A stretch of DNA of 64,000 nucleotides from Candidatus Doudnabacteria bacterium. Its GTDB lineage: Bacteria; Patescibacteriota; Doudnabacteria; UBA920. The position numbers were made by a program, and so were the translations under genes. The notes below the pieces were generated by a model that did not search any database, had not been told where the DNA came from, and saw nothing but the letters and a program-made list of their open reading frames with translations. Shown here in pieces: positions 22,629-63,308 of this stretch. Position 1 is the first letter of the stretch. The number at the start of each line of letters is the position of its first letter. The stretch is from positions 318,305 through 382,304 of the forward strand of contig CAVYGQ010000001.1 in the NCBI GenBank assembly GCA_963768175.1, read 5' to 3'.

Positions 22629-23858
22629 ATGTTGAACAAAGATTTATTTGAAGAAACCTACTGGGCGCTATCCGCCAACAAAGTCAGGACTTCCCTGACT
22701 ATGCTGGGCATTATTATTGGCATCGGCTCGGTTATTGCCATGATAGCCGTCGGCCAAGGCTCGCAAGCCAGCATTGCCTCCAGCATCCAGGCTTCCGGCG
22801 CCAATTTGCTGACCGTAACGCCGGGCGCGGTCAGGGGAGTCGGCACGCAAGTCAGCGCCGGCCGCGGCAGCGCGCAAACTTTGTTGCAAACCGATGCCGA
22901 CGCCATTTCCAGCGGCGTGGCTCTGGTCAAGGAAGTATCCCCGGAATTTGCCACGCGCGACCAAATTACCGCCAAAGGCACCAATACCAACACGCAGGTC
23001 ATCGGCAGCACGCAAAATTATATAGATGTCCATAACGTACAAATTGACCAGGGTGCCTTTATTACCGCCCAGGAAAACACCTCTTTGGCCAAGGTCGCCG
23101 TTTTGGGGCCCACAACGGCGGGCGACTTATTCGGCGTGGGAGCCAACGCGGTAGGCCAAACCATAAAAATCAACAGCCAAGAATTTAAAGTCATCGGCGT
23201 AACCGTGGCCAAAGGAGGTACCGGTTTTAATAACCCGGACACTGCCGTGTTTATTCCGCTGGACACAGTTGAGCACTTTTTGGCCGGCGATACGACCGGT
23301 TATTTAACCAGCATTGCCGTCCAGGTACAGGACGCCAACTCCATGGACGCGGCGCAAAACCAAATTACCAACTTGCTGCTTAGCCGCCATCAAATTACCG
23401 ATCCGACACTTGCGGATTTTAGCATTATTAACCAGGCAGACATTTTAGCCAGCGCCTCCACCGTTACGGGCACATTCACGATTTTGCTGGCCTCGGTCGC
23501 GGCTATTTCGCTTTTGGTCGGCGGTATTGGCATTATGAACATGATGCTGACCACGGTAACCGAACGCACCCGGGAAATCGGGCTTAGAAAAGCCATTGGC
23601 GCGCAGAAAAACGACATTACCAAACAATTCCTAAGCGAAGCCATAGCTTTAACTTTTTTGGGCGGTATTATTGGAATTGTTTTTGGCTGGCTTTTGGCTT
23701 TAGGCGTGCAGCATTTCGCCAACATTGCCGCGCAGGTTTCCTTGTCTTCCATCTTTTTGGCTTTCGGGGTTTCCGCCGCCATCGGTATAATATTCGGCTA
23801 CTATCCGGCGCGACGCGCCGCGGCACTGAACCCAATAGAAGCGTTGAGGTACGAATAA
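22629..23858 (+). CDS. ABC transporter permease (FtsX/MacB-like)
   Basis: N-terminal TM, large periplasmic domain, and C-terminal four-helix FtsX-like permease domain (LTTVTERTREIGLRKAIGA). Confidence 0.8.
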   Translation: MLNKDLFEETYWALSANKVRTSLTMLGIIIGIGSVIAMIAVGQGSQASIASSIQASGANLLTVTPGAVRGVGTQVSAGRGSAQTLLQTDADAISSGVALVKEVSPEFATRDQITAKGTNTNTQVIGSTQNYIDVHNVQIDQGAFITAQENTSLAKVAVLGPTTAGDLFGVGANAVGQTIKINSQEFKVIGVTVAKGGTGFNNPDTAVFIPLDTVEHFLAGDTTGYLTSIAVQVQDANSMDAAQNQITNLLLSRHQITDPTLADFSIINQADILASASTVTGTFTILLASVAAISLLVGGIGIMNMMLTTVTERTREIGLRKAIGAQKNDITKQFLSEAIALTFLGGIIGIVFGWLLALGVQHFANIAAQVSLSSIFLAFGVSAAIGIIFGYYPARRAAALNPIEALRYE

Positions 23859-23966
23859 ATCATGTAAGCATTTAAGCATACAAACATTTTAACACTCGGG
23901 TAAATTCGCGATGCTTAAATGTTTACATGTTTAGATGTTTAAATGAATAATTAACTAAGGACCAAC

Positions 23967-24413
23967 ATGACAAGCAAACAATGGATTATCTTGATAGTGG
24001 TTGCGGTAGTTTTCGCGGGCGGCGGTTTTTTTGGCGGGATGAAATACCAGGCCTCTAAGACTCCGGCTGTAGCCGTAAGGACAAGCACGGCTGGCGCCGC
24101 AGGAGCGGCGGGAGCTTTTGCCGGACGCAGAAGTGGTACAGGAGCCAACGCCAGCTTTATTAGCGGTGACGTGCTTAGCGTAAACGGCAATACCATTACC
24201 GTTAAGTTGGCAAGCGGCGGCTCGCAAGTCGCGGTACTCGCCCCTTCCACCCAATACCGCAAAGCGGTTGACGGCACAAGCGCGGACGTGGCCGTAGGCA
24301 GCCAGGTTACCATAACCGGCACCACCAATTCCGACGGCAGTTTAACGGCCCAAAGCGTGCAAATCCGCACGGCAAGTTCAACCTCTCCCGGTATGGGAAT
24401 GCCTCCGCAATAG
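23967..24413 (+). CDS. Secreted/membrane-anchored Ala-Gly-rich hypothetical protein
   Basis: N-terminal hydrophobic helix and AGAAGAAGAFAG low-complexity region. Confidence 0.4.
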   Translation: MTSKQWIILIVVAVVFAGGGFFGGMKYQASKTPAVAVRTSTAGAAGAAGAFAGRRSGTGANASFISGDVLSVNGNTITVKLASGGSQVAVLAPSTQYRKAVDGTSADVAVGSQVTITGTTNSDGSLTAQSVQIRTASSTSPGMGMPPQ

Positions 24414-27423: not shown

Positions 27424-27523
27424 ATCGCTTTTTTGGAAAACTACTCTTATTTTTGCACCTTATTACCTAAAAGTCAAAATATTACTTAAAGCAAAAGCCG
27501 CCAAATATTTTGGCGGCTTTTGC

Positions 27524-27611
27524 TGGTGGGCAGGGAGGGATTCGAACCCCCGTAGCCAGTGAAGGCGTCGCGTCTACAGCGCGATGTAATTGACCGCTCT
27601 ACCACCTGCCC
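27524..27611 (-). tRNA. tRNA-Tyr (anticodon GUA), long variable arm
   Basis: Reverse complement gives acceptor GGGCAGG/CCTGCCC, anticodon stem-loop TCGCG-CTGTAGA-CGCGA, long variable arm, T-arm GGTTCGAATCC, and CCA. Followed 3' by hairpin gcaaaagccgcc...ggcggcttttgc. Confidence 0.8.
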
Positions 27612-28197: not shown

Positions 28198-29478
28198 TTA
28201 CGTTCCTTCCTGCCAACTCGCCAAATACTTTTTTTGCGCAGGGGTTAAAACGTCAATTTTAACCCCAATTGATTTCAGCTTTAATTTGGAAACACGCTCA
28301 TCAATTTCGGCAGGTACATCATAAACTTGATTTTGAAGCTCCTGATAATGTTTAACCAGCCAGTCACAAGTTAGCGCTTGGTCGGCAAACGACATATCCA
28401 TAACGGCGGAAGGATGCCCTTCGGCCGCGGCCAGGTTCATGAGGCGGCCTTCAGCGATGAGGAAAAGTTTGCGCCCGTCTTTCATAGTATACTCCATCAA
28501 GCTATCCCTGACCTGCTTCATGCTTTTTGCTTCATGCTTCATGTCCTTCACATTTATTTCCACGTTAAAATGCCCGCTGTTGCCCAAAATCGCCCCATCT
28601 TTCATCAATTTAAAATGTTGCTTGGTAAGAACGTCTTTATCTCCGGTAGCGGTCAAAAATATATCGCCAATTTTTGCCGCCTTGGGCATTGGCATAACAT
28701 CAAAACCGTCCATGGCGGCCTGAAGCGCCGGCAGGGGATCTACCTCTGTGACAATCACGCGCGCGCCCAAACCCTTAGCCCTAAGTGCCATGCCCTTGCC
28801 GCAGTAACCGTAGCCGGCCACAACCAAAATTTTTCCGGCCAAAAGGATGTTGGTGGCGCGGAGCAAACCGTCCATAGTGCTCTGGCCGGTGCCATAATAA
28901 TTATCAAACATGTGCTTGGTCGGGGTGTCGTTTATGGCCACAACCGGATATTTTAACGCGCCGTCTTTGGCCATGGCCTTTAGCCGGATTATGCCGGTAG
29001 TGGTTTCTTCCTGGCCGGCCCAGACGGTTTTTAAAAGCTCGCTTCGTCCGGAATGGATAAGCGATATCAAGTCCGCGCCGTCGTCTATGGTAATCTGCGG
29101 TTTAAAATCCAAAACTTTATTTAGCGCCCAATAATAATCTTTCTTGGAAATATGCTTCCAGGCAAAAACGTTAATGTTCAGCTCCGCCAAAGCCGCGGCT
29201 ACGTCATCCTGCGTAGACAGGGGATTAGAGGCGCACAAGGCCATTTTTGCCCCGCCCGCCGCCAAAGCCTTCATTAGCACCGCGGTCTCTTTGGTCACGT
29301 GGAGACACGCCGCTATGGTTATGCCTTCAAAAGGCCGCCGCTTTTTTCCGCCAGAGGCGGATCCGCCTTTGGCGGAGAAATCTTCCGCGATAATCCGCAA
29401 AACCGGCATTTCCCGCTCGGCCAAAGCAATATTAATATGCCCTTGCTTGGCCAGTTTAATGTCTTTTACTTTGTGCAT
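28198..29478 (-). CDS. ahcY: Adenosylhomocysteinase
   Basis: NAD-binding GYGxxGKG (VVAGYGYCGKGMA), conserved LHVTKETAVL and HFNVEI blocks, and length 426 aa. Contains an in-frame GGSASGG palindromic insertion. Confidence 0.85.
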   Translation of the reverse strand: MHKVKDIKLAKQGHINIALAEREMPVLRIIAEDFSAKGGSASGGKKRRPFEGITIAACLHVTKETAVLMKALAAGGAKMALCASNPLSTQDDVAAALAELNINVFAWKHISKKDYYWALNKVLDFKPQITIDDGADLISLIHSGRSELLKTVWAGQEETTTGIIRLKAMAKDGALKYPVVAINDTPTKHMFDNYYGTGQSTMDGLLRATNILLAGKILVVAGYGYCGKGMALRAKGLGARVIVTEVDPLPALQAAMDGFDVMPMPKAAKIGDIFLTATGDKDVLTKQHFKLMKDGAILGNSGHFNVEINVKDMKHEAKSMKQVRDSLMEYTMKDGRKLFLIAEGRLMNLAAAEGHPSAVMDMSFADQALTCDWLVKHYQELQNQVYDVPAEIDERVSKLKLKSIGVKIDVLTPAQKKYLASWQEGT

Positions 29479-29645
29479 CTTGTGGTTGATTATTTTTAAG
29501 CTTTAAAAAGTATAGCAAATAATGGCCACCATTGCGAATGCAGATTGGGCTCGCAGCCCAAGGATGCCCCTCGGACAAAGGAATCTCCGGCCGAGGGGCA
29601 TCCTTGGTTGAACAACGCTGGTAAAAAATCCCGGATGACGAAACG

Positions 29646-30142: not shown

Positions 30143-30178
30143 TGAGGACAGTCCTCTGGACGTCCAGAGGACTGTCCT
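30143..30178. repeat. 36-bp perfect GC-rich palindrome (intergenic)
   Basis: gaggacagtcctctggac|gtccagaggactgtcctc: perfect 18+18 arms with nested sub-palindromes. Confidence 0.7.
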
Positions 30179-30327
30179 CGCTTGATGTTCACTAACACCA
30201 ATTATATCAAAAAAACTTCTTATTTAAAAGCCTTTTAAAACCGATTTTAGCCCTAACATAAGCCGGAAAAAAACTGAAACAATCTTTTGAACAATTACGT
30301 ATTAATTTATACAAGGAGCTAGTTGAT

Positions 30328-31302
30328 ATGAAATTTAAACCAAATATTTTAAATTTCCCCTTAACTTTGGGTTTAATACTGGCGACAGCGTTAACACTCG
30401 GGCAAAATACGGCTTTAGCCCAAACCGCACAAGCCACCGCTCCCAATTCCGGAGCGGGAGCAAACTCTTCCTATAACTGGGCCGGTTATGTTGCCACGGG
30501 AGGCAGCTTTACTTCTGTTACCGGCAGCTGGGTAATTCCGCAAATTCCCGCAACTTCCGGCCTTACGGGCGACGCAACTTGGATTGGCATTGGCGGGGTA
30601 ACCAGCACCGAGTTAATCCAAACCGGCACCCAGGCCTTGACTAATACCAACGGCTCGGCTGTTAGTTACGAAGCCTGGTACGAAGCTTTGCCCGGATATT
30701 CCCAACCCATATCCATTACGGTTAATCCCGGAGACTTAATTACGGCAAGCGTAACCGAACAAGCCCAAAACCAGTGGGCCATTACGTTACGCGATAACAC
30801 CAACGGCCAAAACTTCCAAACCGTCATCCCTTACAATTCTTCCATGTCGAGTGCCGAATGGATAGAAGAAATGCCCAGCCAACAAAGCGGCGCTTTTATC
30901 CCATTGGATAATTTCGGCACAATGCAGTTTAGCGCCGGCACCACGGTAAAAAACGGCCAAACATTAACCATCGCCCAGGCGGGCGCTCAACCTATGACTA
31001 TGGTTAACTCCTCCCAGCAAGCCTTGGCTACGCCATCGGCGCTAGGCTCTGACGGCGCAAGCTTTAGCGTTTCGCGCGGCAGCACCGCCGCCACTTCGCC
31101 CAATACCGTTCCTTACGGCAGCCGCGGATGGACAAGGACAGGTGTAGGGATACGGGGTTTTGGAGGATTTTCAACAAGGCCGCAAAGCCTTAGACGGTCT
31201 TATTACAATCATTTTTTAAGACTTAGAACCAGGATGTTTACCCCGTTAAAGAATACCGCCAACAAAGTTGGTGGCATAGAAAAGATTTTTTGGAACCGAT
31301 GA
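30328..31302 (+). CDS. Secreted protein with peptidase A4/G1 (eqolisin)-like N-terminal domain (tentative)
   Basis: Signal peptide, then NWAGYVATGGSFTSVTGSWVIPQ...DATWIGIGGV...LIQTGTQ resembles the conserved blocks of scytalidoglutamic peptidases. Confidence 0.35.
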   Translation: MKFKPNILNFPLTLGLILATALTLGQNTALAQTAQATAPNSGAGANSSYNWAGYVATGGSFTSVTGSWVIPQIPATSGLTGDATWIGIGGVTSTELIQTGTQALTNTNGSAVSYEAWYEALPGYSQPISITVNPGDLITASVTEQAQNQWAITLRDNTNGQNFQTVIPYNSSMSSAEWIEEMPSQQSGAFIPLDNFGTMQFSAGTTVKNGQTLTIAQAGAQPMTMVNSSQQALATPSALGSDGASFSVSRGSTAATSPNTVPYGSRGWTRTGVGIRGFGGFSTRPQSLRRSYYNHFLRLRTRMFTPLKNTANKVGGIEKIFWNR

Positions 31303-38855: not shown

Positions 38856-40385
38856 ATGCCAAATCCTGTTTGCCTCATAATTCTTGACGGCTGGGGCTAT
38901 CGCGAAAATCCGGAAAACAACGCCATCGCGCAGGCCAAGACGGCCTTTTTTGACGCTCTGCTAAAAAAATATCCGCACACGCAGCTTTTCGCCAGCGAAG
39001 AACACGTGGGCCTACCCAAAGGACAAATCGGCAACAGCGAAATCGGCCATATGACCATGGGCACCGGCCAGGTTTTGGACGTGGATTTGGTAAAAATCAA
39101 CAAAGCGGCGCAAAAAGGCGAATTCCACACTAATCCCGCCTTTTTGCAACTTTTTGACCACGTCAAGCAATACAATTCCACTCTACATGTCGTAGGTATG
39201 GTAAGCCCTGGCGGAGTCCACAGCCATCAGGACCATTTGCACGAATTCCTAAAAGCCGCCAAAACTGCCGGCGTAGAAAAAGTCGCCATTCACGCCATTA
39301 CCGACGGGCGTGATTTGCCTCCGCAAAGCGGCGCCCAATACCTAAAAGACCTGGAAAAAGTTTTGGCCGATTTAAAAATCGGTTTTATCGCCACCGTACA
39401 CGGGCGTTTTTACGCGATGGACCGAGACAAAAACTGGGAACGCTTGGCAAAAACCGAAGCTGCTATTTTTGAAAGCAAAGGCAAGGTCGTGCGGGCAAAA
39501 AAACCGTCCGAAGTCCTAAATGAGCTTTACAAACAAGGGGTTGTGGACGAGCATGTTGAACCGATAGTATTTTTGGACGAAACCGGCAAAGGCTGGCCCA
39601 TTTCGCAAAACGACGGCGTGTTCTTTTTTAACTACCGGCCCGACCGCGCCAGGCAGCTGGCCAAAAAAATCCTGGAAAAAAAGCAGACCCACAACCTGTG
39701 TTTTGTCACGCTTACCGAGTACGACAAAACTTTTGAAACGCTGGTTGCTTTTCCGCAAAGCAAAATCGATACATCTTTGGCCGCGGAAATATCCAAAGCC
39801 GGCTTAAAACAGTCACACATCGCGGAAACGGAAAAATACGCGCACGTAACTTACTTTTTTAACGGCGGACACGAACAGCCTCATAAAAACGAACACTTCT
39901 TTTTAATAGACAGCCGGCGAGACGTACCGACCCACGATTTGGCGCCGGAAATGCGCGCGCACGAAATTGCGGACAAAACCGTGGAAAGAATAAAGGCCGG
40001 CGACAATTTTTTGGTTATTAACTTTGCCAACGCCGACATGGTCGGCCACACGGCTAACCAAAGCGCGATTATAACGGCCGTGGAAACCGTAGACAGGGAA
40101 CTAAAAAGGGTGGTTGAAGAAGTTACAAAACACGATGGAATAGCTATTGTTACCGCGGACCACGGCAACGCCGAAGTAAATATAGACGAAAAAACCGGCG
40201 AAAAGCATACCGCCCACACCACCAACTTAGTCCCATTTATCTTGGTCAGTAATGTCATTCCCGCGAAAGCGGGAATCTTGCGCCCATTGGGCACCCTCGC
40301 CGACATCGCTCCCACCATTTTGGAGCTGATGAATTTAAAAAAACCCGCCTCAATGACGGGAAAAAGTTTAATTGTGTTAAATTAA
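38856..40385 (+). CDS. gpmI: 2,3-bisphosphoglycerate-independent phosphoglycerate mutase
   Basis: Conserved CLIILDGWG, NSEIGHMTMGTG, DGRD, ADHGNAE and C-terminal ADIAPTIL blocks. Contains a 30-bp palindromic element in-frame near the C-terminus. Confidence 0.9.
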   Translation: MPNPVCLIILDGWGYRENPENNAIAQAKTAFFDALLKKYPHTQLFASEEHVGLPKGQIGNSEIGHMTMGTGQVLDVDLVKINKAAQKGEFHTNPAFLQLFDHVKQYNSTLHVVGMVSPGGVHSHQDHLHEFLKAAKTAGVEKVAIHAITDGRDLPPQSGAQYLKDLEKVLADLKIGFIATVHGRFYAMDRDKNWERLAKTEAAIFESKGKVVRAKKPSEVLNELYKQGVVDEHVEPIVFLDETGKGWPISQNDGVFFFNYRPDRARQLAKKILEKKQTHNLCFVTLTEYDKTFETLVAFPQSKIDTSLAAEISKAGLKQSHIAETEKYAHVTYFFNGGHEQPHKNEHFFLIDSRRDVPTHDLAPEMRAHEIADKTVERIKAGDNFLVINFANADMVGHTANQSAIITAVETVDRELKRVVEEVTKHDGIAIVTADHGNAEVNIDEKTGEKHTAHTTNLVPFILVSNVIPAKAGILRPLGTLADIAPTILELMNLKKPASMTGKSLIVLN

Positions 40386-44528: not shown

Positions 44529-45701
44529 ATGGAACCGCTAGCCAATAAAATTCGCCCGACGTCGCTTAAAGGATTTGTCGGCCAACAGCATCTGGTCGGG
44601 CCGGATAAACCTTTAAAGATTGCCGTTGAACAAAAACATTTGTTCAGCTTTATTTTTTGGGGCCCGCCGGGGGTAGGGAAAACCACCCTGGCGCGGATTT
44701 ATGCCAAAGCGGTTAACGCGGAATATTTTGAACTGTCCGCTGTTTCCGCGGGTAAAGATGACATCCGGAAAATTGTTGACCGCCCGCCGATGATGGGACA
44801 GCCGAAAATATTGTTCCTTGATGAAATCCACCGCTTTAACAAAGCCCAGCAGGATTATCTATTGCCGTTTGTGGAAACCGGCAAATTATATTTAATCGGC
44901 GCCACCACGGAAAATCCTTCGTTTGAAGTGATCCCGCCTTTGCTTTCCCGTTGCAGGGTGTTTGTGCTAAACGAGTTGGCCGATGACGAAATCGAAAAAA
45001 TCATCGTTCAGGCCTGCAGAAGTGTCCCCTCTGCTGCAGAGGGGACACTTCTGCCAAAGAACAAAATAGATAAAAAATCCAAAGACTGGCTGGTACAAAT
45101 GGCTAACGGCGACGCTCGCCAGGCCATCAGCATGATAGAAAACACGGTAAATCTATACGGAAAAATTACCGTTGAAACCTTAAAAGACACCCTGCAATCC
45201 AAATTTTTGCGCTACGATAAAGCCGGTGAAGAACACTACAATATCATCAGTGCGTTTATAAAAAGTATGCGCGCCAGCCAGCCGGACGCGGCGCTCTATT
45301 ATATGTGCCGGATGATTGCTGCCGGCGAAGATCCGCTGTTCATCGCGCGGCGCATGGTGATTTTCGCCAGCGAGGACATCGGCTTAGCCCAGCCCACGGC
45401 CTTGGTGGTCGCCAACGCCGTATTCCGCGCCTGCGAAACCATCGGCTACCCCGAATGCGCCGAGAACCTTGCCCACGGGACCGTTTATCTGGCGCTGGCC
45501 AAAAAGGACCGCAGCGCCTACAACGCCTACCTGGCCGCGATGAAGGATGCCAAGGAATACGGCAACCTGCCCGTGCCGCTTAAAATCCGCAACGCACCCA
45601 CCAAGCTTATGAAAGAATTAAAATATGGGGAAGGTTATGAAAGTTATGATAAAGATGATTATCTGCCGGAAAAATTAAAAAGGAAAAAATATCTAATTTA
45701 G
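44529..45701 (+). CDS. rarA: Replication-associated recombination protein A (AAA+ ATPase)
   Basis: Walker [12 protein letters not shown], Walker [13 protein letters not shown], and conserved [10 protein letters not shown] and [11 protein letters not shown] blocks. Carries a 37-bp perfect palindrome in-frame. Confidence 0.85.
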
Positions 45702-45718
45702 GCAAAAAAGCTCCATCG

Positions 45719-46771
45719 ATGACGCAACTTAAAAAATTTTTAAAAAAATACGCCTATCGACTGCCATCGGAACTAGTTGCGCAAACTCCGGCCAAACCGC
45801 GCGATGCTGCGCGGCTTTTGGTTTACAATCGACGGTCAAAAAAAATAAAATTTGATCGATTTTTTAATCTTGCGGGATATTTACCCAAAAACGCCGTCCT
45901 GGTCTTTAACCAAACCAAAGTCTGGCCGGCGCGGCTAACAATAATCAAACCAACCGGTGGCAAAGTCAAAATTTTGTACATTGATGCCGATAAAAAAAGC
46001 GGGCTTATAAAAATTATCAGCAACAAGCATCTCCCAGTAGGGGAGCGTGTTGATTTTTTGCGCGGCCGCGCAAAAAATCAACACCTTAAAGTCATCGGCA
46101 AAAAAAACGGCTTTTATTATTTAAGACCAAATTTTCCAATATCCCAAATCACCAAAATCATGACAAAATACGGCGTAACGCCGCTACCACCTTACATTAA
46201 AAATTCCCCTTTATCGGAAATCCAACGCCGCAAAGAGTACCAATCGGTCTTTGCAAAAACCGGTTTATCGGTAGCCGCGCCCACAGCGAGTTTGCATTTT
46301 ACCAAACGATTAATCAACCAGCTTCAAAAGCAGGGGATAGGCATCGCTTTTGTTCAGCTTGATGTAAACTTAGGAACTTTTGCGCCTTTGCGCGAAGAAC
46401 AAATTAAATCTGGAAAACTTCACCAGGAGTTTTACCGGATAAATAAATCAACGGCGCGATTTTTGAATCAAGCCAAAGCGGCTGGCCGTCCCATTATTGC
46501 CGTTGGCACCACCGTGGTCCGCACCCTGGAATCCGCTGCAAAAAATCAACGGCTGACAAAACTAACGGGGAATACAGATCTGTTTATTAAAGAAAATTAT
46601 AAGTTTAAATTTGTTGACGGCCTTATTACCAACTTCCATGTTCCCAAATCCAGCCTGCTGATGCTCACTTCCGCCTTTGTCGGCCGAAAAAAATTATTTG
46701 ATCTATACAAGCAGGCCATCAGTAAAAACTTCCGCTTCTTCTCCTTCGGCGACGGCATGTTAATTTTTTAG
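45719..46771 (+). CDS. queA: S-adenosylmethionine:tRNA ribosyltransferase-isomerase
   Basis: YRLPSELVAQTPAKPRDAARLLVY N-terminus plus conserved GTTVVRTLES and HVPKSSLLML blocks of QueA. Confidence 0.8.
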   Translation: MTQLKKFLKKYAYRLPSELVAQTPAKPRDAARLLVYNRRSKKIKFDRFFNLAGYLPKNAVLVFNQTKVWPARLTIIKPTGGKVKILYIDADKKSGLIKIISNKHLPVGERVDFLRGRAKNQHLKVIGKKNGFYYLRPNFPISQITKIMTKYGVTPLPPYIKNSPLSEIQRRKEYQSVFAKTGLSVAAPTASLHFTKRLINQLQKQGIGIAFVQLDVNLGTFAPLREEQIKSGKLHQEFYRINKSTARFLNQAKAAGRPIIAVGTTVVRTLESAAKNQRLTKLTGNTDLFIKENYKFKFVDGLITNFHVPKSSLLMLTSAFVGRKKLFDLYKQAISKNFRFFSFGDGMLIF

Positions 46772-49954: not shown

Positions 49955-50935
49955 TTATCCCAGACGACTTCCAATAAATTGCGGATAGCCGTTTAAAAAG
50001 TCGCCGATGGCAACTTCCGATTTCCCCTCAAGCTGAAGTTGTTTAATTTGCAAAAAAGTATTACTGCCGCAAACCGCCACTCCGTTTTCAAGCACTGTGC
50101 CCGGCATTCGTGTCATTCGTGTGCTATTCGTGTCATTCGTGTCGCTTAAAATACAATCGGTAATCTTTAAAATTTTACCGTTCCAAGTTGTCCAAATTCC
50201 AGGCCAAATATAAAAAGCGCGAAATTGATTATAAATTTCCGGAGATGTGCGCTGCCAATCAACTTTGCCGTCGGCTTTACTGATTATTTTGGTATAAGAA
50301 GCTTTGACTTCATCCTGGGGCAGGGGAGTAATTTTGCCGCTGGCATAATCCTCAACAACCCGATTAATCAACCGGGCGGACAGTCTGGCTAGCTTGTCGG
50401 ACAAAGTGAAATAGTTATCATCGGGATCAATTCCAACTATTTCCTGTGCCAGCAGCGGGCCGCCATCAATTTTTTGGTCCAACAAAAATATAGACGTGCC
50501 GGTTTGCTGGTCGCCATTAAGCAAAGCAAACTGGATGGGCGAAGGGCCACGATACTTTGGCAAAATTGAAAAGTGGACGTTAATCGTTTTGTATCGAGGC
50601 AGGCCGATAATTTCCGCCGGCAAAATTTTGCCGTAAGCCACCACTACAAAAATATCCGCGTTTAAATTTTGCAGCTGCCGTAAAAATTCCGGATTCTCCT
50701 TCAAATTTTCCGGCTTTAAAACAAACAGCTTTAAATCTTTTGCCAAAGCCGAAACCGGGCTTTCCTGCAAGTCCTGCGACCTTCCCGCTTCAGCGTCCGG
50801 CTTGGTAACCACAGCTAAAATTTTGTGCTGTTTATTTAAAGTTTCCAATACCGGCAAAGCTTCGTTAGCCGTGCCAAAAAATACAATTTTTCCGCCAAAG
50901 GCGGACCCGCCTCCGGCGGGCATTTTCTCATTCAT
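49955..50935 (-). CDS. fmt: Methionyl-tRNA formyltransferase
   Basis: N-terminal KIVFFGT, formyltransferase core (HFSILPKYRGPSPIQ), and C-terminal domain. Carries a GGSAFGG palindromic element at the 5' end and an in-frame tandem repeat. Confidence 0.85.
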   Translation of the reverse strand: MNEKMPAGGGSAFGGKIVFFGTANEALPVLETLNKQHKILAVVTKPDAEAGRSQDLQESPVSALAKDLKLFVLKPENLKENPEFLRQLQNLNADIFVVVAYGKILPAEIIGLPRYKTINVHFSILPKYRGPSPIQFALLNGDQQTGTSIFLLDQKIDGGPLLAQEIVGIDPDDNYFTLSDKLARLSARLINRVVEDYASGKITPLPQDEVKASYTKIISKADGKVDWQRTSPEIYNQFRAFYIWPGIWTTWNGKILKITDCILSDTNDTNSTRMTRMPGTVLENGVAVCGSNTFLQIKQLQLEGKSEVAIGDFLNGYPQFIGSRLG

Positions 50936-51498
50936 AATTTCCTCATTACTTTTCTTAAAACTTCCGCCTCCAACCGACAGTCAACCAAAGCGTTGTGCAA
51001 CTGGTTTTTACCGATTTTTATTTTAAATATTTTAATTAAATACTCCAGCCCAAAACCGGCAAAGTCTTTTTTGGAATTAAGCTTGTTGCGTTTGGCCAAA
51101 AAGCCGTAAAATAGAGCCCACAAATCAAAATAATGGTAGTCAAACGGCCACTTAACTCCAGCTTTTTTATAAGCATCCGTTAAAATCCGTTTGTCGTTAA
51201 AACCCACATAAAAAGCCTGGGTTACGTTGTGGGGAAACGCGCGGTTGAACTTTTTTATCGCCTGGCTCAAAGTCGGCGCGTCTTTGACCATTTCCCAGGT
51301 AATTTTATTCACCGCCATGGACTTAAGGTCGCGGCTTTTCCACTTGGACGGTTTGACGTAAGTGCTAAAATATTTTTTTTCTTTTAAAGTTTTTTTGTCC
51401 AAAAGCACCGCGGCGATTTGCAGCAAATCGTGCTTTTTGGGAACATCAAAACCGGAAAACTCGGTATCAATTAGCAGTAAATCCTTGTGAAAGTTCAT
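50932..51498 (-). CDS. DEDDh 3'-5' exonuclease (DnaQ-like)
   Basis: Exo I LLIDTEFSGFD, Exo II FNDKRILTD, Exo III HNALVDC. Confidence 0.65.
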   Translation of the reverse strand: MNFHKDLLLIDTEFSGFDVPKKHDLLQIAAVLLDKKTLKEKKYFSTYVKPSKWKSRDLKSMAVNKITWEMVKDAPTLSQAIKKFNRAFPHNVTQAFYVGFNDKRILTDAYKKAGVKWPFDYHYFDLWALFYGFLAKRNKLNSKKDFAGFGLEYLIKIFKIKIGKNQLHNALVDCRLEAEVLRKVMRKL

Positions 51499-51566
51499 AG
51501 ATAGTGGATAGTGGTCAGTGGATAGTGGTCAGTCCTGTCCACTGATCACTGTACACTGTCCACTTT

Positions 51567-52103
51567 TTAAACTTCTTTAATTATTCTCCTGAATATTTCC
51601 GCCGCCAGCCTGACTTTTTCCAGCATATCGTAAGGATTTTTTTGCTTTAACCTGAAATAATCCAGTAAAGTCTGGAACGTCGGCATTTTATTTAACCCGT
51701 AATTTAAAGTGTAAATATACCCTAAAGTCCAAAGCTGTATCACATGATAGTCGTAATCGTAAGTTACGGCCGCTTTTTTAAAGGCATTTTTTAAAAACCA
51801 AAGGTTGTTTGAGCTGTGGGTGGCCAGAAGCAAATCCGCGCCGAATTTTTTATGGAAATTTTTTATGGCATCATAGACTTTTGGGCTTTTGCGCAAGGTT
51901 TCGTAATCGGTATGTAAAATTTTTGCGTGTTCGTTGATAATGCTGTCCAAATAACTTATCCTGATAAAAGTATTAAAATTATTTTTTTCCAGCAGGTTAT
52001 CTTTATCCAGCAAAACCGCGGAAAGCTGGATTATGGAATCTTTGTCCGGGTCGTGCCCGGTGGTCTGGATTTCAAAAAATAAAATGTCTTTGATAAATTT
52101 CAC
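51567..52103 (-). CDS. DnaQ-like exonuclease paralog with substituted catalytic residues
   Basis: Same fold as the adjacent gene, but Exo I reads FFEIQTTG (D to E, E to Q) and Exo III reads YDMLEKV (H to Y, D to E). Confidence 0.5.
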   Translation of the reverse strand: MKFIKDILFFEIQTTGHDPDKDSIIQLSAVLLDKDNLLEKNNFNTFIRISYLDSIINEHAKILHTDYETLRKSPKVYDAIKNFHKKFGADLLLATHSSNNLWFLKNAFKKAAVTYDYDYHVIQLWTLGYIYTLNYGLNKMPTFQTLLDYFRLKQKNPYDMLEKVRLAAEIFRRIIKEV

Positions 52104-52771: not shown

Positions 52772-53200
52772 TTAGTGTCGCTTTTCTTCATTATACTTTT
52801 TAATCAAATAAGCAAACAGTTTCCCCGGGCTCTTTACATCTTTTCCCTCCAAAACCTGCCCTAACAAATTTCTTAAAAAATTATGGTCATACAAAGTGGC
52901 CATTTTTAAATAAAAACCGAAATGCTTTTTATCGTTCAACTTTTGACATAACTCGTCGGCCAACAAATGGGCAGGGGAGTGCAAGTGGGCATCTTTTTTG
53001 GCCAACCTTTTAATATCATATAGATGGCCATCCTCCGAAGCCTTGGCGGAGGAGGATGGCTTGGCCGAAGAAAATTTGGCGATTTTACCCAAGCGCTCCA
53101 TAAAGCTAATGAACAAAAGGGACGGGAATGACAAAAATGAGCAAAAACGGCAGATTGCTGCCGTCCCGAACAAAGTGAGGGATCCCTCTCTCGGCTGCAC
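52772..53200 (-). CDS. Hypothetical protein
   Basis: 142-aa ORF containing an imperfect GC-rich palindrome at 53027..53060. Confidence 0.35.
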   Translation of the reverse strand: MQPREGSLTLFGTAAICRFCSFLSFPSLLFISFMERLGKIAKFSSAKPSSSAKASEDGHLYDIKRLAKKDAHLHSPAHLLADELCQKLNDKKHFGFYLKMATLYDHNFLRNLLGQVLEGKDVKSPGKLFAYLIKKYNEEKRH

Positions 53201-54682: not shown

Positions 54683-54762
54683 AATGATAGAATAACTCAA
54701 GCCAATGGGCATCTTTGGTCTAAGATGGTGCCCAGTCCAAAGATGCCCATTGGAGCTAATTT

Positions 54763-61816: not shown

Positions 61817-61934
61817 TTGCTTAATTATAGCACAGATTTAATGACAAGAGCGGCATGATTTAAATGATTGACAAGATTTGGTGCAATTAATTCATGTCAT
61901 TCTTGTCAATCGTGTCATTCTTGTCAATTATTCT

Positions 61935-63308
61935 ATGAAATACGCTTTTATTTTAGGGAGGGTTTATACTTTATCGGTGGCCGAACTTTTGGCTGTTTTG
62001 GAAAAAACAGACGCCTCTTTAGGCTTAACGGGTGAACCTGTGCAAATTTTGGAAGCCTCGGAAGAAGTTTTAATCGTAGAAACCGGAAAACCCCTTAACG
62101 TGGAAAGGCTGCAAAAAAAGCTCGGCGGGGTAATTAAGATTCTTGAGGTAGTTGATGTGATAAAAAAACGCGAACGGGATTCCATTAATTTTGCCCTAAA
62201 ACATTATTTTAAGCCCGGCATCCTTAAAAAACAGTTTTTTAAGGACTACAAAGGCAAAGTGCAGTTCGGCCTGAGCATTTATATTTTAGATATGGATCTG
62301 CTTAAACGCCCCGGGCCGAATCCGAGGGACAAAAACCAAGGAGTTTTTTCCGCCGGAGGCGGATCCGCCTTCGGCGGAAATTCTGTTTTTAGCGAGCCCA
62401 AAAGAGTAGGCATGATGATAAAAAACGGGCTTACCGAAAGCGGCGCCAGCGTCAGGCTGGTCTTGCCCGAATACAATTCCCTATCGCTGGCTTCGGTAGT
62501 GGTAACAAAAAATTTGCTTCTGCAAAAAGGCGCGGAGATTTGCATCTTGGCCGCCAAAGACAATATTTTTACGGCTAAAACTTTAACAGTGCAGGACTTT
62601 GAAGATTACGGCCGCAGGGATTATCAACGGCCTGCCAGGGACGAGAAACAAGGCATGATCCCCCCAAAAGTGGCGCAAATTATGCTTAACCTCTCGGGCT
62701 GCAAATCCGGGGACAGCATTTTAGACCCGTTCTGCGGCGTCGGCACAATTATCCAGGAAGGCTTGTTGCTTGGCTTCCGCATGATTGGCAGCGATATAAA
62801 TAAGCAGGCCATAAAAGGCAGCGAACAAAATTTGGAATGGTTCAGAAACCGCTACAAAATCGCTCCGGGAAAATACGGAGTGGAGGTTTCCAACGCCGCC
62901 AAGGTCGCCGATTTGATAGATAAATCCAAAAGCCAAATTTCCGCCATTGTCACCGAAGGCACCCTGGGGCCAATATACGGCCAATACCCCAAAGCCGACG
63001 AGATTGCCAAAAATTTTAAGGACCTGGAAAAACTTTATAAAGCCAGTTTTAAAGAATTTGCCAAATTTCTCCCCAAACAAGCCAAAATTGTCATGTGCCT
63101 GCCGGCTTACCGGAAAAGCCGCGACCAATACGAAATGTTCCCCAGCCTTGACTTCGCCCAAGCTTTAGGATATAATTTAGTGGATATTATTTCCCCATCT
63201 GTTGTAAAAAAACTTAAATTCCTCAAACTGACGACCAGAAACACGGCTATTTATGATCGCAAAGATCAGATTGTTGCGAGAGAGATAGTAATCTTTGAAA
63301 AAATATAA
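61935..63308 (+). CDS. THUMP-domain class I SAM-dependent RNA methyltransferase (Trm11/RlmL-like)
   Basis: Trimmed to MKYAF at 61935. Motif I ILDPFCGVGTIIQEG and acidic motif II MIGSDIN. Carries a GGSAFGG palindromic element in-frame. Confidence 0.5.
   Translation: MKYAFILGRVYTLSVAELLAVLEKTDASLGLTGEPVQILEASEEVLIVETGKPLNVERLQKKLGGVIKILEVVDVIKKRERDSINFALKHYFKPGILKKQFFKDYKGKVQFGLSIYILDMDLLKRPGPNPRDKNQGVFSAGGGSAFGGNSVFSEPKRVGMMIKNGLTESGASVRLVLPEYNSLSLASVVVTKNLLLQKGAEICILAAKDNIFTAKTLTVQDFEDYGRRDYQRPARDEKQGMIPPKVAQIMLNLSGCKSGDSILDPFCGVGTIIQEGLLLGFRMIGSDINKQAIKGSEQNLEWFRNRYKIAPGKYGVEVSNAAKVADLIDKSKSQISAIVTEGTLGPIYGQYPKADEIAKNFKDLEKLYKASFKEFAKFLPKQAKIVMCLPAYRKSRDQYEMFPSLDFAQALGYNLVDIISPSVVKKLKFLKLTTRNTAIYDRKDQIVAREIVIFEKI

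Follow-up and report, generated by a model that had tools for sequence, protein, structure and literature searches.

In a 64-kb stretch of Candidatus Doudnabacteria DNA (contig CAVYGQ010000001.1; hereafter the window), the coding sequence (CDS) of rarA, which encodes a RarA/MgsA AAA+ protein, was found to carry a perfect 39-bp palindrome in its reading frame. We favour, at a rough probability of 55%, the reading that this palindrome is one state of a small palindromic DNA element, rich in guanine and cytosine (GC), that resides in a tolerant linker of RarA, where it is more probably selfish or neutral than useful.

A perfect palindrome lies in frame within rarA

The palindrome spans positions 45016..45054 of the window on the plus strand and consists of two arms, GCAGAAGTGTCCCCTCTGC and GCAGAGGGGACACTTCTGC, separated by a central T and matching without a single mismatch (19-1-19). 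The initial annotation had described a 37-bp palindrome (18-1-18) at 45016-45052; the palindrome is present as described, while its coordinates were one base off, the 37-mer truly lying at 45017..45053 and being extended by one pair on each side by the outermost G45016/C45054. The host gene, rarA (mgsA), is an open reading frame (ORF) of 390 amino acids at 44529..45701 on the plus strand, in which the palindrome codes for residues C163-P176. The central T45035 occupies a third codon position, with third positions pairing with third positions and first with second, which is the most constraining codon phase. Each arm starts with GCAGA and ends with TCTGC, and the palindrome as a whole starts with GCAG and ends with CTGC. 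The rarA product matched E. coli MgsA (3PVS) at 2e-93, its homologues bear the Pfam domains AAA, AAA_assoc_2 and MgsA_C, and the closest RarA proteins come from metagenome bins of the Patescibacteria/Candidate Phyla Radiation (CPR). The reading frame is intact, and conserved RarA sequence resumes on both flanks of the palindrome. The host sequence had been called AT-rich, a description that overstates the case, since the GC content of the window ranges from 0.34 to 0.51 and is about 0.46 near the site.

A palindrome of this length had been considered most unlikely by chance, and a census of arms bore this out. In 60 dinucleotide-preserving shuffles of the window (loops of 0-4 nucleotides) the longest arm was 8-13 bases, compared to the 19 observed, and 10 arms of at least 11 bases were observed against 0.18 expected. 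Synonymous-codon shuffles within genes gave maximum arms of 8-12 bases, and palindromes in CDSs with arms of at least 12 bases numbered four in the window against 0.07 in these shuffles. A chance origin was ruled out by both kinds of shuffle, and a palindrome forced by the protein sequence was also ruled out, because synonymous shuffling destroys it. Three perfect palindromes in the window have arms of at least 18 bases: the one in rarA, one in queA (46047..46084), and an intergenic 18-0-18 palindrome at 30144..30179 with arms GAGGACAGTCCTCTGGAC and GTCCAGAGGACTGTCCTC. The rarA palindrome was predicted to fold at -38.4 kcal/mol as RNA (z-score -8.4) and at -22.5 as DNA (z -9.3), and in neither case did any of 200 shuffles equal it. 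When the window was compared with Rfam 15, only tRNAs reached the gathering threshold and the overlaps with the palindrome were sub-threshold microRNA-like matches, so that a known RNA family was rejected. An intrinsic terminator was likewise rejected, as the terminator scan made no call and the stem is followed by CAAAGAACAAAA, with no T-run.

The palindrome encodes a predicted disordered linker of RarA

In an AlphaFold2 model of RarA, with a mean predicted local distance difference test (pLDDT) score of 68, the palindrome-encoded peptide is placed in a coil formed by residues 166-181 and flanked by helices 152-165 and 182-192, and the modelled pLDDT drops below 50 at residues 170-177. In the alignment, this peptide replaces the EDKTRGYGGQDI (EDKTRGYGG) loop of E. 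coli MgsA (3PVS). Given the low-pLDDT coil and the replacement of the MgsA loop, the segment is predicted to be a tolerant, disordered surface linker that joins the AAA+ core to the lid, and both the alignment and the predicted model place the in-frame palindrome at a surface position that leaves the RarA fold intact. The segment from LSR to GDAR comprises 45 residues in most CPR RarA proteins, 49 in some of them, 56 in non-CPR RarA and 59 in the window. The initial annotation had located the palindrome in a variable loop between the AAA+ core and the MANGDARQA helix, where a variable, low-pLDDT linker was indeed found, and the peptide proved unconserved in distant RarA, most CPR homologues having the 45-residue form. 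Its description as an insertion holds relative to the short CPR forms and fails relative to E. coli MgsA, whose loop is of similar length.

Hairpins occupy the same position of rarA in related genomes

This position of rarA (the slot) was compared in the DNA of close relatives (loci L161-L169), within a wider survey of 140 loci. Strong hairpins were found in the extra linker DNA of seven clade members (the window, L161, L164, L165, L167, L168 and L169), with structure z-scores of -5 to -7.7 and perfect stems of 10-19 bases, and among the 140 loci they were limited to this clade. The 45-, 49- and 56-residue linker forms were unstructured (median z near 0; stems of 5 bases). The loop of the slot hairpin spans from 1 to about 90 nucleotides, and further perfect hairpins may nest inside it. 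The slot of L161 has an outer stem around two tandem 11-bp hairpins, unlike each other and each perfect, and that of L165 holds three hairpins. L167 and L168 carry CCGAGGGTTCCCCTCGG-N17-CCGAGGGGAACCCTCGG, L169 carries CAGAGGATGCCCCTCT-TGTT-AGAGGGGCATCCTCTG, and L164 has a small self-contained hairpin, TTGGAAGAAG-GGACA-CTTCTTCCAA, which the right arm of the window palindrome resembles. In L166 the extra residues are present with a decayed hairpin (z about 0), and L162 has the short form without a hairpin despite 92.6% protein identity. The window palindrome represents one state of an orthologous, clade-wide hairpin slot, not a one-off event.

The outer stems of four distinct orthologues have a TCCCCTC/GAGGGGA core in common and show compensatory change on both arms, for example GTGTC..GACAC in the window versus ATATC..GATAT in L161. 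Covariation was counted over four to five orthologues in rarA and queA. In a hand-built alignment of the rarA outer stem in the four distinct orthologues, from which the loops were removed and L164 (shifted by MAFFT) and L165 (a bulge) were left out, 85.9% of cells were paired compared to approximately 50% in slid controls, and both sides had changed in 6 of 16 pairs. Judged by these alignments, the outer stems are orthologous. The element is identical in L167 and L168 at 57 of 59 bases, whereas identity over the whole gene is 77.5%, and 55% at third positions; double coding constraint on the paired arms, selection, or recent exchange could account for this.

Two further observations concern variation in RarA length. 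Very close RarA proteins (P0005 versus P0006, and P0003 versus P0002) differ in having a short (..ST-GYKLKKDA..) or a long, hairpin-bearing (..QA..KIDKKSK..) linker, and the flanking residues differ as well. The short and long linkers look like two old alleles swapped by recombination, not the outcome of a simple deletion. A second insertion hotspot lies just ahead of the C-terminal DDYLP, where L083 carries the hairpin CTTCCCCCTCTCCCTTGAGGGGAGAGGGTGGGGG; proteins P0017 and P0026 also have an insertion there.

The arms of a palindrome in queA change in concert

The second coding palindrome with long arms lies in queA (45719..46771, plus strand; Queuosine_synth by domain scan). It is a perfect 19-0-19 palindrome at 46047..46084 on the plus strand, with arms GTGTTGATTTTTTGCGCGG and CCGCGCAAAAAATCAACAC, and codes for part of VDFLRGRAKNQH. 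Five queA orthologues hold a palindrome at the same codons, the relatives' copies being at L162:4217-4252, L165:7596-7655, L166:4545-4588 and L167:3306-3339; all five share the centre CGG/CCG and differ in their arms. Three of them are perfect over 18-22 bp, and two (L165 and L167) have one to three mismatches. In the centre-anchored alignment of the five, 95.6% of cells pair, compared to approximately 42% in slid controls, and both sides had changed in 12 of 18 pairs; none of 500 shuffles came up to this. Only 2 of 90 cells were G-U pairs. The encoded peptide varies freely (VDFLRGRAKNQH, VDVSLGRAKRQQ and VTVFLGREKQSP), and the more distant queA genes (L168, L169 and L001) have a decayed centre only, or nothing. 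The initial annotation had regarded the palindromes within CDSs as insertions, which does not apply to queA, where no insertion in length was found and the palindrome is conserved and co-evolving. On the evidence of these alignments, it is the clearest case of concerted arm evolution.

In L165, an intergenic perfect 20-0-20 palindrome lies directly after the PALP gene (L165:1595-1634); it has exactly the centre of the L162 queA palindrome, CGCTCGG/CCGAGCG, and the arms are partly alike (TGTT....CGCTCGG). The queA genes of L162 (3783-4997) and L166 (4073-5299) also share a 35-residue insertion (YLPRTNF...KLVRGLP) with perfect arms of about 16 bp, TTACCCCGCACCAATTT and AAATTGGTGCGGGGT; L162 and L166 do not differ in these arms, while the loop of about 70 nucleotides is strongly diverged. 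The gene queA follows rarA directly in the window (45701..45719), whereas at least one gene stands between them in the relatives (L162:2754-3602, L165, L166, L167 and L168), including that for a hypothetical protein of about 280 amino acids without a Pfam match.

Hairpin DNA accounts for most large protein indels in the clade

When the window genes were compared with those of close relatives, 58% of 24 distinct insertions or deletions (indels) of at least 5 residues folded at z of -3 or below, compared to 11% of length-matched control CDS segments. The initial annotation had suggested a general tolerance of, or an active mechanism for, in-frame hairpins, and this proportion lends support to it. 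Perfect stems of at least 12 bases with loops of at most 8 nucleotides numbered 28 in 150 kb of the clade versus 48 in 1,059 kb of other loci, an approximately 4-fold higher density, and 13 of the 28 clade stems had loops of 0-1 nucleotide. Hairpin DNA accounts for most large protein indels in the clade, and since hairpins also recur at the same spot of rarA in relatives, palindromic DNA shapes protein loops here.

Related elements were found both in genes and between them. An intergenic perfect 17-16-17 stem-loop (CCAAGGATGCCCCTCGG..CCGAGGGGCATCCTTGG) at 29558..29607, approximately 80 nucleotides upstream of ahcY, can be aligned from end to end, loop as well as arms, with the element that lies in frame in rarA of L167 and L168, and a match to its core GGATGCCCCTC is present in the L169 rarA hairpin. 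Another intergenic perfect stem-loop (17-18-17; CCAATGGGCATCTTTGG..CCAAAGATGCCCATTGG) at 54702..54753 has the same architecture, and its arm matches that at 29558 at about 14 of 17 bases. A hairpin of the CCCCCTCTTA type lies between genes in L164 and within a CDS in L161 and L165. An SAH riboswitch was considered for the hairpin upstream of ahcY and found no Rfam support, and a stretch of ahcY coding sequence resembling the 29558 arm (window 28408) was deemed compatible with chance. A 17-mer scan of all loci at up to 4 mismatches gave a background too noisy for use.

A different element, encoding the peptide GGSAFGG or GGSASGG, is made of two TCCGCC-NNN-GGCGGA mini-hairpins over 30 nucleotides and has three copies in the window, every one in frame in a CDS. 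The copy in ahcY (29347..29376, minus strand) is a 30-nucleotide insertion (SAKGGSASGG) that the L169 orthologue lacks; the copy at the N-terminus of fmt (50891..50920, minus strand; MNEKMPAGGGSAFGGKIVFFGT) is lacking in L162; and the third (62349..62378, plus strand; ..SAGGGSAFGGNS..) lies in a methyltransferase-like ORF (61878..63308). The fmt gene of L169 shares the element and has an extra hairpin nested at its centre. No match to the element was found among the 167 loci searched. In the spacer about 80 nucleotides upstream of fmt in L162 (10107-10186, minus strand), there is a composite hairpin tagged with GTAG...CTAC, GTAGCGGAGGGCACCGCCCTCC....GGCGGCCGGTGGCCGCCGCTAC; the same spot in the window and in L169 holds the in-frame GGSAFGG element in its place.

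A 10-14-10 hairpin in the ORF 52772..53200 (53027..53060, minus strand) falls within a 16-residue insertion relative to orthologues; this hairpin and the GGSAFGG family had been named as further examples within CDSs, and both the hairpin and the ahcY copy of the GGSAFGG element are insertions relative to orthologues. Another such example, given earlier as 40251, is the hairpin ATTCCCGC-GAAA-GCGGGAAT at 40257..40276 (plus strand) in the iPGM gene (38856..40385).

Origin and maintenance of the palindromes

On the favoured reading of a tolerated palindromic element in rarA, such elements would arise and grow through inverted copying at the DNA level, that is, by fold-back or template switching in replication or repair, and/or mini-hairpin elements would transpose, preferentially at hairpin tips; the nesting at hairpin centres in L161, L165 and the fmt gene of L169 points to tips as preferred insertion sites. 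Templated correction would then copy a change in one arm to the other, allowing the arms to drift yet stay complementary, and selection would act as a filter only, with in-frame copies kept in loops that tolerate them. The rarA palindrome may itself have grown by inverted doubling of a smaller hairpin, because each of its arms is bounded by GCAGA and TCTGC and the right arm is like the L164 hairpin. The central bases of a folded hairpin are unpairable, and therefore selection on the fold alone would not keep the centre symmetric. From this central symmetry, the scarcity of G-U pairs, and the tandem and nested hairpins that are diverged yet perfect, we infer that the arms are kept complementary by copying at the level of DNA and not by selection for a folded RNA.

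Several points weigh against this reading. Template switching is deduced from these patterns and was not observed. No second copy of the rarA arm beyond chance was found in the 64-kb window at up to 3 mismatches, leaving mobility of the exact arm unsupported; no target-site duplication was definable; and no transposase or RAYT (the transposases associated with repetitive extragenic palindromes) turned up among the 10 window proteins scanned, with no search aimed at mobility enzymes. The slot and the queA palindrome persist where synonymous sites are near saturation, which also fits selection, and the near-identity of the L167 and L168 elements needs double coding constraint, selection or recent exchange. 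Neither a target site nor a consensus was definable for the window elements.

We advance more tentatively, as a possibility that we do not favour, a wider proposal in which an active DNA process peculiar to this lineage continually creates, nests and re-perfects palindromes and is the main source of insertions and length variation in the protein loops of these reduced genomes, with the rarA linker and queA codons 110-122 persisting as self-maintaining coding palindromes over long times. Such a process could be a hairpin-templated conversion, possibly tied to a hairpin-recognising enzyme of a mobile element or to the loss of a hairpin-cleaving repair activity.

A selected cis-acting structure, in which selection keeps the pairing of an mRNA stem that makes ribosomes pause where the AAA+ core meets the lid, of an mRNA-decay control, or of a protein-bound DNA cruciform, appears unlikely to us. 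The very stable stem is what such a structure would have, and hairpins with compensatory changes persist both at the slot in seven clade members and at one set of queA codons in five orthologues; however, the architecture is unconserved, with loops of 1 to about 90 nucleotides and nested hairpins, and the hairpin is missing in L162, decayed in L166 and missing in nearly all other RarA genes. The far better conservation of the L167/L168 element than of flanking synonymous sites also favours selection, whereas the occurrence of like hairpins in unrelated genes and intergenic DNA speaks against it, as do the lack of an Rfam family or a terminator tail and the symmetry through an unpairable centre with near-absent G-U pairs, which points to DNA and not RNA.

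Less likely again is a local, one-off template switch that perfected an ordinary quasi-palindrome of rarA, with no element family and no upkeep. The outer stem is common to L161, L167, L168 and L169, together with its core and compensatory changes, homologous elements occur elsewhere (window 29558 versus L167 and L168), and the same process recurs in many genes, all of which argue against a single event, even though the rarA arm is unique in the window and both its likeness to the L164 hairpin, which suggests the doubling of a small hairpin, and the GCAGA and TCTGC ends of each arm would suit one. That the palindrome is an artefact of assembly or sequencing, for instance a fold-back chimera, is highly improbable: amplification or assembly errors can make palindromes, but here the frame is kept between conserved RarA flanks, equivalent slot hairpins appear in independent assemblies that differ in sample and pipeline (JGI, ENA and Logan), and the queA palindrome of L162 is identical to that of L163.

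Other repeats and genes of the window

Further inverted repeats were noted in the window. At 51500..51560, a 26-nucleotide inverted repeat (81% complementary) with tandem GATAGTG-like units sits between the minus-strand ORFs 50932..51498 and 51567..52103, both of them RNase T-like. Several inverted copies of TGACAAGA / TCTTGTCA (61842..61923) surround the start of the methyltransferase-like ORF 61878..63308. An AT-rich inverted repeat at 23854..23952, with 41-nucleotide arms (76% complementary) and a nested 22-nucleotide pair at 91%, marks the junction of the ORFs 22629..23858 and 23967..24413. A perfect 16-3-16 hairpin at 27490..27524 adjoins the 3' end of tRNA-Tyr (27524..27611, minus strand) and is probably its terminator. 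In addition, the ORF 30328..31302 has a Peptidase_A4 domain (1e-35), which seemed unexpected in this bacterium, as the family is known mainly from fungi.

Relation to known palindromic elements

Coding palindromes described in nematomorph mitochondria in 2019 are perfect inverted repeats of up to 284 bp, in frame in functional genes; the two arms change together, species differ through gain and loss of the repeats, and template-switch repeat conversion was proposed as their upkeep, with a parasitic character (PMC6649704). Similarly, the perfect 19-1-19 repeat described here is in frame within an intact gene, the 390-amino-acid rarA ORF, and arms change in concert (both sides in 6/16 pairs in rarA and 12/18 in queA). 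In contrast, the nematomorph palindromes are animal mitochondrial and encode conserved protein regions, whereas those of the clade are bacterial, measure 36-51 bp and lie in variable loops, the rarA arms encoding a variable, low-pLDDT linker that most homologues lack. Some elements here also belong to dispersed families found between genes as well, and orthologous copies are sometimes imperfect (L165 and L167).

Rickettsia palindromic elements (RPEs) measure approximately 100-150 bp, form multi-copy families recognisable by sequence, and are tolerated in the housekeeping genes of a small-genome bacterium and also found outside genes. As summarised in a later article (PMC6649704), they are selfish palindromic repeats in frame in genes (Ogata et al. 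2000, 2002; Claverie & Ogata 2003), and the identity of their repeats fades with time. Like RPEs, the elements described here are palindromic DNA tolerated in frame in bacterial proteins and present outside genes; unlike RPEs, they are 3-4 times shorter (39 bp in rarA), many are unique in sequence, and their arms stay perfect or co-vary instead of losing identity. As for dispersal of the RPE type, the rarA arm is single in 64 kb, while the L167/L168 slot element is homologous to 29558..29607 and the GGSAFGG element has three copies.

The GC42 clusters of yeast mitochondria are mobile GC-rich palindromes of approximately 40 nucleotides in a lower-GC genome (Wu & Hao 2015; PMC4478555). Conservation of their stems exceeds that of synonymous sites, and the clusters merge and shuffle into composites, to which the conservation of the L167/L168 element and the nested hairpins compare; the GC clusters, however, are mitochondrial and mostly intergenic, with a defined consensus and an AG target site (PMC4478555), neither of which was definable here. 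Repetitive extragenic palindromes (REPs) and bacterial interspersed mosaic elements (BIMEs), which are linked to RAYT transposases, are dispersed bacterial palindromes of 20-40 bp, extragenic and high-copy, whose head reads GTAG or CGTC (Di Nocera et al. 2013; PMC3733652). Some relatives' hairpins carry a like GTAG..CTAC tag (L166 queA, L162 upstream of fmt, L004 and L069), whereas the rarA palindrome is intragenic, starts with GCAG rather than having a GTAG or CGTC end, and is single-copy in the window.

Correction of quasipalindromes by template switching turns an imperfect repeat into a perfect one in a single event (Ripley 1982; van Noort et al. 2003, as cited in PMC6649704). It predicts compensatory double changes and symmetry through the centre, both of which were found here, although it is a mutational mechanism and not an element family. 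It is mainly known from mutation spectra and not from gene palindromes of 36-44 bp conserved across species.

The palindromes of this clade are thus akin to known coding and selfish palindromes, and a full-text literature search turned up no account of palindromes that lie in frame and co-evolve in CPR genes, so that they appear unreported there. A 2026 survey found that CPR phyla top all phyla in the density of perfect inverted repeats and placed inverted repeats mainly between genes (PMC13155455), and hairpin DNA of the kind described here offers a testable explanation for that density. Inserts of this kind make proteins look more novel than they are, and they can lead alignments and phylogenies astray; they are also likely to cause difficulties in assembly and cloning. 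If the pattern is genome-wide, the proteins of ultra-small CPR bacteria would gain and lose loop segments via hairpin DNA, not by ordinary slippage, and the clade would provide a bacterial, multi-species counterpart of the nematomorph puzzle that is open to study in hundreds of metagenomic genomes.

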